Source of the DNA: Escherichia coli
GTDB lineage: Bacteria; Pseudomonadota; Gammaproteobacteria; Enterobacterales; Enterobacteriaceae
DNA: 1,812 bases
Strand: one strand, 5' to 3'
Assembly (NCBI RefSeq): GCF_003334255.1
Contig: NZ_QOWU01000148.1
The translations under genes and the position numbers were made by a program. The notes under the pieces are model-generated. The model saw only the letters and a list, made by a program, of their open reading frames with translations, did no database searches and was not told the origin of the DNA. Shown one piece after another: positions 1 through 1,812 of this stretch. How positions within the stretch are numbered: position 1 is the stretch's first letter; each line of letters starts with the position of its first letter.

Positions 1-1
1 G

Positions 2-1812
2 AAGCACAAACGCGAGAATCCGCCCACGGTGGTATCGGAAGCCATGGCAGAACTTCGCGCCCTGCCCTCGTTTCTTGCCAGTCCGCTCATCCGGGACCTG
101 GCTCGCCTGAGCCGCAAACAGGAGAGCGCACGCCGGGAAGGGCTTAAGAATAACAGCGCATATGCGGCGGATAACTTCGTTCGTCATGGGCTGCGTGCCC
201 GCCTGAAACGTATCGCCCGTGTGAATGAACGCTTTGCCACCCCGGCCTTTAAGGCCACCGCCGCCCGCGAACGGCTGGATGAACTGCTTATACTGCCGCA
301 GCTGAGCCGTGACGAAATCCAGCACCTTGCCACCCTGACCGCCACCGCGTTTTCCGCCGCACTGGAGCGCGCATGTGATGAGATCATCGAAAAGACCGGC
401 AGGGGTGACGATGACCTGTTCACCTGGTTACTGACCTACCAGTCACTGGCACACATGGCGTTAAAACTGGGTATCACGCCACCCTGCTGGCCGTCGCTGG
501 AAATCAGGCCAGACCGCCGCACCGCCCCCAACCCGGAACGGGTGCCGGGTGCGGTCATGCGCCTTTCCTGTGCGACATGGTGGAACAGTCAGTTAAGACA
601 CCTCCGGGACATCTGGCGTGAAGAGCTGTTACGCGCCGCAGGTCTGGTGTCACGTAAGACATCGGTATATATCAGCCATGAAGCGTTACTGGACTGGCGC
701 GAAAAACGCCAGCGCACCCGCGATTTTCTGAAGGCCTGGGACATCGAGAACGAAGAGGGAGAACGGTTCAGCCTTGAGGATATCTACTGGGCAGGTCTCT
801 CTAATCCGCGTAACCGCCGTAACGAGATGATGACCTGCGCCCGGGGAATGGAGCAGGTCGCCGAAGCACGCGGCGACGTGGCGTTTTTCGTCACCGTCAC
901 AGCCCCTTCCCGTTTTCACAGCGTGAACGATGACGGCAGTCTGAACCCGAAATACTGCGGGGCAACGGTACGCGATGCCAGTGATTATCTGGTTTACCGC
1001 TTTTTCGCCGCCGTCCGCAGGGCCATCGACAAGGCCGGGCTGGGCTGGTACGGCGTGCGCACAGTGGAGCCCCACCACGACGGTACACCGCACTGGCACA
1101 TGCTGGTATTCACCAGCCAGGAAAACGAAGCCCGTATCACTGAAATCATGCGCAACGCCGCCATCAGGGAGGACCGCGCAGAGCTGGGTGATGATATCTC
1201 CCCGCGTTTTAAATGCGAAAAAATCGACCCGGCAAAAGGCACACCGACAAGCTATATCGCGACCTATATCGGTAAGAACCTGGACGCCAGCGCCTTCATG
1301 GGAAATGACCCGAAAACCGGCAAACCTTACATCGATAAGGAATCAGGCAAAACCATGGCCGAAACCGTGGAGAACGCCATCGGCTGGGCAGGCCTTCACC
1401 GCATCCACCAGTTCCAGTTCTTCGGTATCCCGCCCCGCCAGGTATGGCGCGAACTCCGCCGCCTTGCCGGGCAGATGGCCCGTAACCCGACTGCCCCACA
1501 GCGTCTGGACCATGACGACATTGACGCCATACTGGCCGCCGCCGACGTGGGATGTTTTGCCACCTATATCACCCGCCAGGGTGGTGTGCTCATTCCCCGC
1601 AACACGTACCTGGTCCGCACCGCATACGAAACTGCCGAAGAGGCCAACGACTACGGCGAATTCCCGCAACGCATTTACGGCGTCCGCGCCCCGTTACTCG
1701 GGGAGCGCTACACCATATGCACCCACCCGGACACCTGGAAACTGGTCAGAAAAGAAGCGAAAGCCGACAACAGCACGGACGAGGATTTTGACGTTGGGGG
1801 CGGCTTCGCCGC
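2..1812 (+). CDS. Replication initiation protein, rolling-circle HUH nicking endonuclease of the phage P2 gpA / 186 A family ('replication endonuclease'); partial, open at the 3' end and probably at the 5' end
   Basis: Seen in sequence: frame 2 is open for 603 consecutive codons with no stop (manual translation begins KHKRENPPTVVSEAMAELRALP and ends TDEDFDVGGGFA). It contains, in canonical order, motif 1 FFVTVTAP (881-907), the HUH motif HWHMLVF (1091-1111) and the paired-tyrosine motif YIATYIGK (1253-1276). Every ORF in the supplied track overlaps this frame on the other strand or in another frame. Established knowledge: this motif order with a Y-x-x-x-Y catalytic pair is characteristic of superfamily I rolling-circle initiators (phiX174 gpA, P2 gpA). 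Inference: P2 gpA is ~760 aa with the catalytic tyrosines around residue 450 (from memory); the pair here is at window codons 418/422, so the true start is likely a few tens of codons upstream and the stop a few hundred nt downstream. An in-frame ATG at 44-46 is a possible but unproven start. Confidence 0.9.
1091..1111 (+). other. HUH metal-binding motif (His-hydrophobic-His followed by hydrophobic residues) within the replication initiator CDS
   Basis: Codons cac tgg cac atg ctg gta ttc translate to H-W-H-M-L-V-F in the CDS frame, preceded by EPHHDGTP. The position between motif 1 and the tyrosine motif matches the canonical layout of rolling-circle Rep proteins. Confidence 0.75.
1253..1267 (+). 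other. Paired catalytic tyrosine motif (Y-x-x-x-Y) of the rolling-circle initiator
   Basis: Codons tat atc gcg acc tat translate to Y-I-A-T-Y, followed by I-G-K-N. Two tyrosines separated by three residues and followed by a lysine two residues later match the phiX174 gpA / P2 gpA active-site arrangement (established knowledge; alignment not run). Confidence 0.7.

Follow-up and report, generated by a model that had tools for sequence, protein, structure and literature searches.

The A protein of phage P2 (NP_046795.1, 761 aa) carries a HUH motif and a Y-x3-Y pair, Tyr450 and Tyr454, which we take to be the catalytic tyrosines of the P2 literature. The nick site on which it acts is annotated in the P2 record at position 29892, inside gene A itself. 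A literature search on the P2 A protein returned nothing that bears on its start codon or on an internal start. Escherichia phage PhiR44_2 encodes a larger relative, GpA (XSB42701.1, 946 aa), and P2-like prophages of E. coli carry a “replication endonuclease” of 837–839 aa (WP_271290489.1 in NZ_CP116067.1; WP_152659921.1 in NZ_CP035498.1). The same HUH nickase superfamily includes the gene A product of phiX174, in which an internal in-frame start gives rise to a shortened protein, A*.

The window considered here is the whole stretch of E. coli DNA that was analysed, 1,812 nt in length. Judged by its sequence, the fragment comes from the replication-initiator gene of an E. coli P2-like prophage, whose product would be an 837-aa HUH rolling-circle nickase of gpA type. 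Frame 2 of the plus strand is free of stops in all 603 codons, corresponding to codons 86–688 of the 837, with the third position of codon 85 falling on base 1 of the window. The gene is thus cut at both window ends. The initial annotation had noted an open frame from base 2 onward and a start that may lie upstream. Both points hold, as the frame stays open through base 1812 and, in the related contig L004 (Logan, SRR5657837), for 323 nt further in the 5′ direction. The preferred reading, to which a probability of about 0.92 is given, is that the window would be an internal gpA fragment whose start ATG lies 254 nt upstream, that Met100 is an internal residue, and that the boundary is a technical one, the edge of a contig assembled with k = 77. 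The feature itself is an ordinary P2-type prophage nickase gene that has been annotated before, and there is nothing new in it. The coordinates of the features are collected in Table 1.

Table 1. Features of the 1,812-nt window (positions in window coordinates; residues numbered on the 837-aa protein).
Feature	Position	Strand	Basis or remark
gpA-type replication endonuclease gene, internal segment	2..1812	+	Open frame, PF05840, PHROG 91, RefSeq name
5′ terminal 77 nt, probable k-mer overlap	1..77		Identical to L003; first mismatch at base 78
GGTGGT, imperfect SD-like hexamer	28..33	+	10 nt before ATG 44; anti-SD duplex −6.4 kcal/mol
In-frame GTG (Val95)	29..31	+	Other in-frame start-type codon before ATG 44; without SD, best duplex −3.0 kcal/mol
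GGAAG	37..41	+	2 nt (CC) before ATG 44; spacing too short for a Shine–Dalgarno sequence, not conserved
In-frame ATG, internal Met100 of 837 aa	44..46	+	85-residue offset in full-length close homologues
HUH motif, His449-Trp-His451	1091..1099	+	CAC TGG CAC; aligned with HWH of P2 gpA
Y-x3-Y pair, Tyr503 and Tyr507	1253..1267	+	Aligned with P2 gpA Tyr450 and Tyr454
3′ terminal 77 nt, second k-mer overlap	1736..1812		Identical to L003 and L008; last mismatch at base 1735

The full-length protein used for the profile searches and for the alignment to P2 is the 837-aa product of L004 (772–3282). Residues 189–514 of this protein match the Pfam family PF05840 (Phage_GPA; E = 6.5e-106) over model positions 1–320 of 321, and residues 4–826 match PHROG 91, “nicking at origin of replication” (E = 2e-235). 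The family profile, the HUH motif, the Y-x3-Y pair, the location in a P2-like prophage and an N-terminal W-N/Q-x-P motif all place the gene in the P2 gpA type. The translation of the window is up to 99% identical to E. coli proteins named “replication endonuclease”, nearly all of the complete ones being 837 aa long. Megablast of the window found a match in 62 of 5,426 complete E. coli genomes, chromosomal and under a “replication endonuclease” CDS every time, with 98.8% identity in the top match. None of the NCBIfam models matches the 837-aa protein, or the ORF upstream of it, at E ≤ 0.001, so the RefSeq name must come from another source of evidence. Megablast of the window against the phage collection gave no match; the phage relatives were reached by tblastn.

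The RefSeq relatives (WP_271290489.1, WP_152659921.1) share 97–99% DNA identity with the window across its whole length and in the same frame. They differ by few substitutions, such as a lysine at residue 86 where the window encodes arginine (2–4). Their neighbourhood is also shared, with a 138-aa ORF upstream that overlaps as ATGA, a 134-aa ORF downstream, and MarR-family, SSB and portal genes. Near-identical loci are flanked more generally by genes for the portal, the large terminase, an ogr/Delta-like protein, a Dam methylase, SSB and a MarR-family regulator, together with small ORFs. There is a 4-nt overlap between gpA and each of its neighbours, the 138-aa ORF upstream (L004 359–775; PHROG 3237, of unknown function) and the 134-aa ORF downstream (L004 3282–3686). 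Because of these overlaps on both sides, gpA and its two flanking ORFs are probably translationally coupled.

The relationship to the phage proteins is more distant. P2 gpA shows 32% identity over approximately 690 residues, with the HUH motif and the Y-x3-Y pair in register. The protein here is 76 residues longer, and its residue 102 aligns with P2 residue 46. The W-N-A-P motif of P2 gpA lies at about residues 27–30, whereas the equivalent W-N/Q-x-P motif is found here at residues 12–15. P2 has some 20 extra residues before the motif. Between the W-N-x-P and L-P motifs, it is the protein here that has about 55 extra residues, largely charged and falling at residues ~30–95 (L004 860–1056). PhiR44_2 GpA is 52% identical and has a longer C-terminal part, and its gene has the same 4-nt overlap with the ORF upstream. 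In its alignment, residue 6 here corresponds to residue 2 there, and the N-terminal part encoded 5′ of the window is therefore shared with a bona fide phage.

The true start was sought in contigs that extend beyond the 5′ end. L004 is identical to the window over positions 1–1750, L005–L007 show one to three differences over the same interval, and the reading frame continues upstream of the window in L001–L005 and L008. The initial annotation had proposed that the first in-frame stop and the candidate starts be located in such sequence. Followed upstream from window base 1 in L004, the frame meets its first stop, a TGA, at a distance of 323 nt. Going downstream again, the first codon of start type is an ATG, 22 codons past this TGA; it sits 254 nt before window base 1 and 85 codons ahead of the codon at 2–4. 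A conserved GGGGAG stands 7–8 nt before this ATG, with a Shine–Dalgarno duplex of −7.6 kcal/mol, and is kept in six alleles of 73–99% protein identity despite divergence of the surrounding bases. The 138-codon ORF in front of it ends in a TGA that shares bases with this ATG, in the form ATGA, an arrangement that suggests translational coupling to that ORF. In more distant alleles the stop of the upstream ORF falls between GGGGAG and ATG, and the close arrangement is kept. The same start is annotated by RefSeq in 837-aa genes that are 97–99% identical. Taken from this sequence context, the upstream ATG is read as the initiator in this lineage. A GTG three codons before it, seen in L002 and L008, was rejected as a start, as it is missing from the L004/L001/L003 type. 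The upstream sequence of the window's own copy would be that of contigs identical to it over the 5′ 77 to 1750 nt. The 255 nt upstream of the window are identical in L001, L003 and L005–L007 and differ by one base in L004.

The 85 codons outside the window read as coding sequence by several measures. All of the approximately 45 near-full-length E. coli homologues of 93–99% identity carry 85 extra N-terminal residues relative to the window, and full-length homologues of 88–89% identity carry 87. The earlier expectation that the window lacks some tens of codons at the N-terminus, made with P2 gpA numbering in mind, is borne out; the number is 85 in this lineage and about 30 if counted by P2 gpA. 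Among six alleles, the variable sites in these codons number 19, 18 and 53 at codon positions 1, 2 and 3, and stops are present in the other two frames. The W-N/Q-x-P motif is conserved in all aligned homologues, including P2 gpA. Taken by themselves, residues 1–188 give a match to the N-terminal portion of PHROG 91 (E = 1.2e-11).

Between the upstream ATG and window position 130, the only in-frame ATG, GTG or TTG codons in L004 are GTG 29 and ATG 44. The first of these was rejected as a start, having no Shine–Dalgarno sequence (−3.0 kcal/mol) and being absent in L002 and L008. The second was named as a possible start in the initial annotation and is indeed present in the frame of base 2. Alignment of the N-terminus with homologues suggests that it codes for an internal residue, Met100, at a hydrophobic position of a conserved N-terminal region and is not the initiator. 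Across homologues, the residue in the Met100 column varies among M, I, L, F and V: Ile and Leu in E. coli alleles of 79% and 73% identity, Phe in PhiR44_2 and Leu in P2 gpA. A stop immediately upstream of the window, together with homologues starting at the equivalent of this Met, had been named as the finding that would speak for a start here; there is no such stop, and the column varies as described. The same note had placed GGAAG about 3 nt before the ATG. The motif is there, but the spacing is 2 nt. The second purine-rich element, GGTGGT at 28–33, went unmentioned in that note. In alleles L002 and L008 (~3% and ~1% diverged), ACG GTG GTA TCG has become ACA CTG GTA TCT, so that GGTGG is gone and GGAAG is changed to TGAAG through the synonymous TCG>TCT. 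At the site of the GGTGGT hexamer L002 reads ACACTGGTATCT, and the duplex weakens to −2.8 kcal/mol from −6.4 in the window. Because the column varies and the SD-like bases are lost in these alleles, neither the Met100 codon nor a ribosome-binding site is under selection; the purine-rich stretches before ATG 44 are incidental to the protein-coding sequence. With Met at 11 of the 603 codons, the first 43 would include one or more with a probability of 0.55. Of all codon positions in the window, 4.7% reach a duplex of −6.4 kcal/mol or better, and by our own arithmetic there is a chance of about 65% that at least one of its 22 in-frame ATG, GTG or TTG codons does so. The Met and the SD-like features near ATG 44 are within chance expectation.

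It could still be argued that ATG 44 is the true and sole start of a 738-aa protein, with the open frame upstream being untranslated read-through. The imperfect SD-like hexamer and the homologue P0095 (837 aa), whose annotated start corresponds to residue 96 and lies four codons ahead of the Met100 column, are in keeping with this. The start of P0095 is, however, probably a gene-caller start on a 5′-damaged or mis-called copy of the 830–946-aa type. The 85 upstream codons vary in a coding pattern and are conserved in a phage protein of 52% identity, with a motif common to P2 gpA. At the proposed start, Met100 is replaced by I, L, F or V in homologues, the SD-like bases are lost in alleles of 97% identity, and GGAAG is too near. 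A sole start at ATG 44 is hardly credible and would count as already refuted as far as sequence allows. A milder version is that both starts are used, the full-length gpA being accompanied by a shortened product from ATG 44 without the W-N-x-P region, in the manner of phiX174 A*. This codon does have the best SD-like complementarity among the 22 start-type codons, and A/A* offers a precedent within the superfamily. The likeness is confined to formal layout, an in-frame ATG inside a rolling-circle initiator gene. Unlike phiX174, the gene here shows no conserved Met or ribosome-binding site: the Met and the SD-like bases vary even among alleles of 73–97% identity, GGAAG and GGTGG being lost. The complementarity is what 22 candidates would yield by chance, and the P2 record annotates no such product for gene A. 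Regular dual initiation would therefore be very unlikely, although low-level fortuitous internal initiation at ATG 44 may occur in the window allele.

A different explanation of the 5′ boundary is that the source copy is a truncated remnant, its canonical start removed by an insertion or deletion immediately 5′ of the window. Databases contain many partial gpA entries, and the upstream sequence is known from related contigs, not from the window's own copy. Against this, the partial entries come from contigs of 1–4 kb and are assembly fragments as well, and all six of the six loci that are identical or near-identical over the 5′ end keep an intact upstream part. L003, which is otherwise 80% identical, matches the window exactly over 77 nt at either end and differs from it at 357 positions between these runs. 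Since the 77-nt identities coincide to the base with both window ends, an assembly break is indicated and not a genomic breakpoint. A truncated remnant is very unlikely on this evidence.

A de Bruijn assembler run with k = 77 leaves exact shared runs of 77 nt at the ends of a branch contig. The window is most probably the whole of such a short-read contig, a reading drawn from the two exact 77-nt identities. Window-type and L003-type alleles can share one chromosome, as they do in NZ_CP116067.1 (at 4.05 and 5.34 Mb, respectively) and in NZ_AP045180.1 (at 4.69 and 2.06 Mb). In each of these chromosomes, stretches of over 200 nt spanning the gene start are the same in the two copies. The window would then cover the region of divergence between its own allele and another, related gpA allele present in the same sample, and the source DNA upstream would be a shared stretch carrying the ATG. 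As both ends consist of exactly 77 nt common to two co-resident alleles, the 5′ boundary left undecided by the initial annotation would be technical.

Near the 3′ end, the window departs from the L004/L005 type, to which it is otherwise identical, in a mosaic patch at 1751–1807, where 16 of 57 nt differ and 11 amino acids are changed. The patch is identical to the L008/L003 type, and the combination of an L004-type body with an L008/L003-type patch sets the window apart from its RefSeq relatives. An exact 61-nt pattern covering this combination (window 1729–1789) had no match in metagenome contigs. The patch marks a recombination boundary just upstream of the equivalent of the origin. From 1797 to the last base and beyond (L008 5058–5095), the sequence reads GGCTTCGCCGC followed by ACCTTGGACTCGTGGCAATAACTG and resembles the nick-site region of the P2 ori, GGCATCGCCGCGCCTCGGAGTCCTGTCAATAACTG. 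The corresponding place in relatives reads GGCTTCGCCGCACCTTGGACTCGTGGCAATAACTG, approximately 78% identical to P2 at the nucleotide level when compared by eye. This is high for proteins that are only 32% identical. The window stops within the nick-site-like stretch, 7–8 nt before the equivalent of the nick.

For annotation, the consequence is that a gene caller given the fragment alone could wrongly place the start at Met100 or label the protein as complete. The fragment should be called as a gpA-type replication endonuclease gene, partial at both its 5′ and 3′ ends, that is without its first 84 codons and 2 nt. Windows of this kind can each amount to a complete short-read contig that ends in repeats shared by co-resident prophages, in which case their boundaries are technical and not biological.
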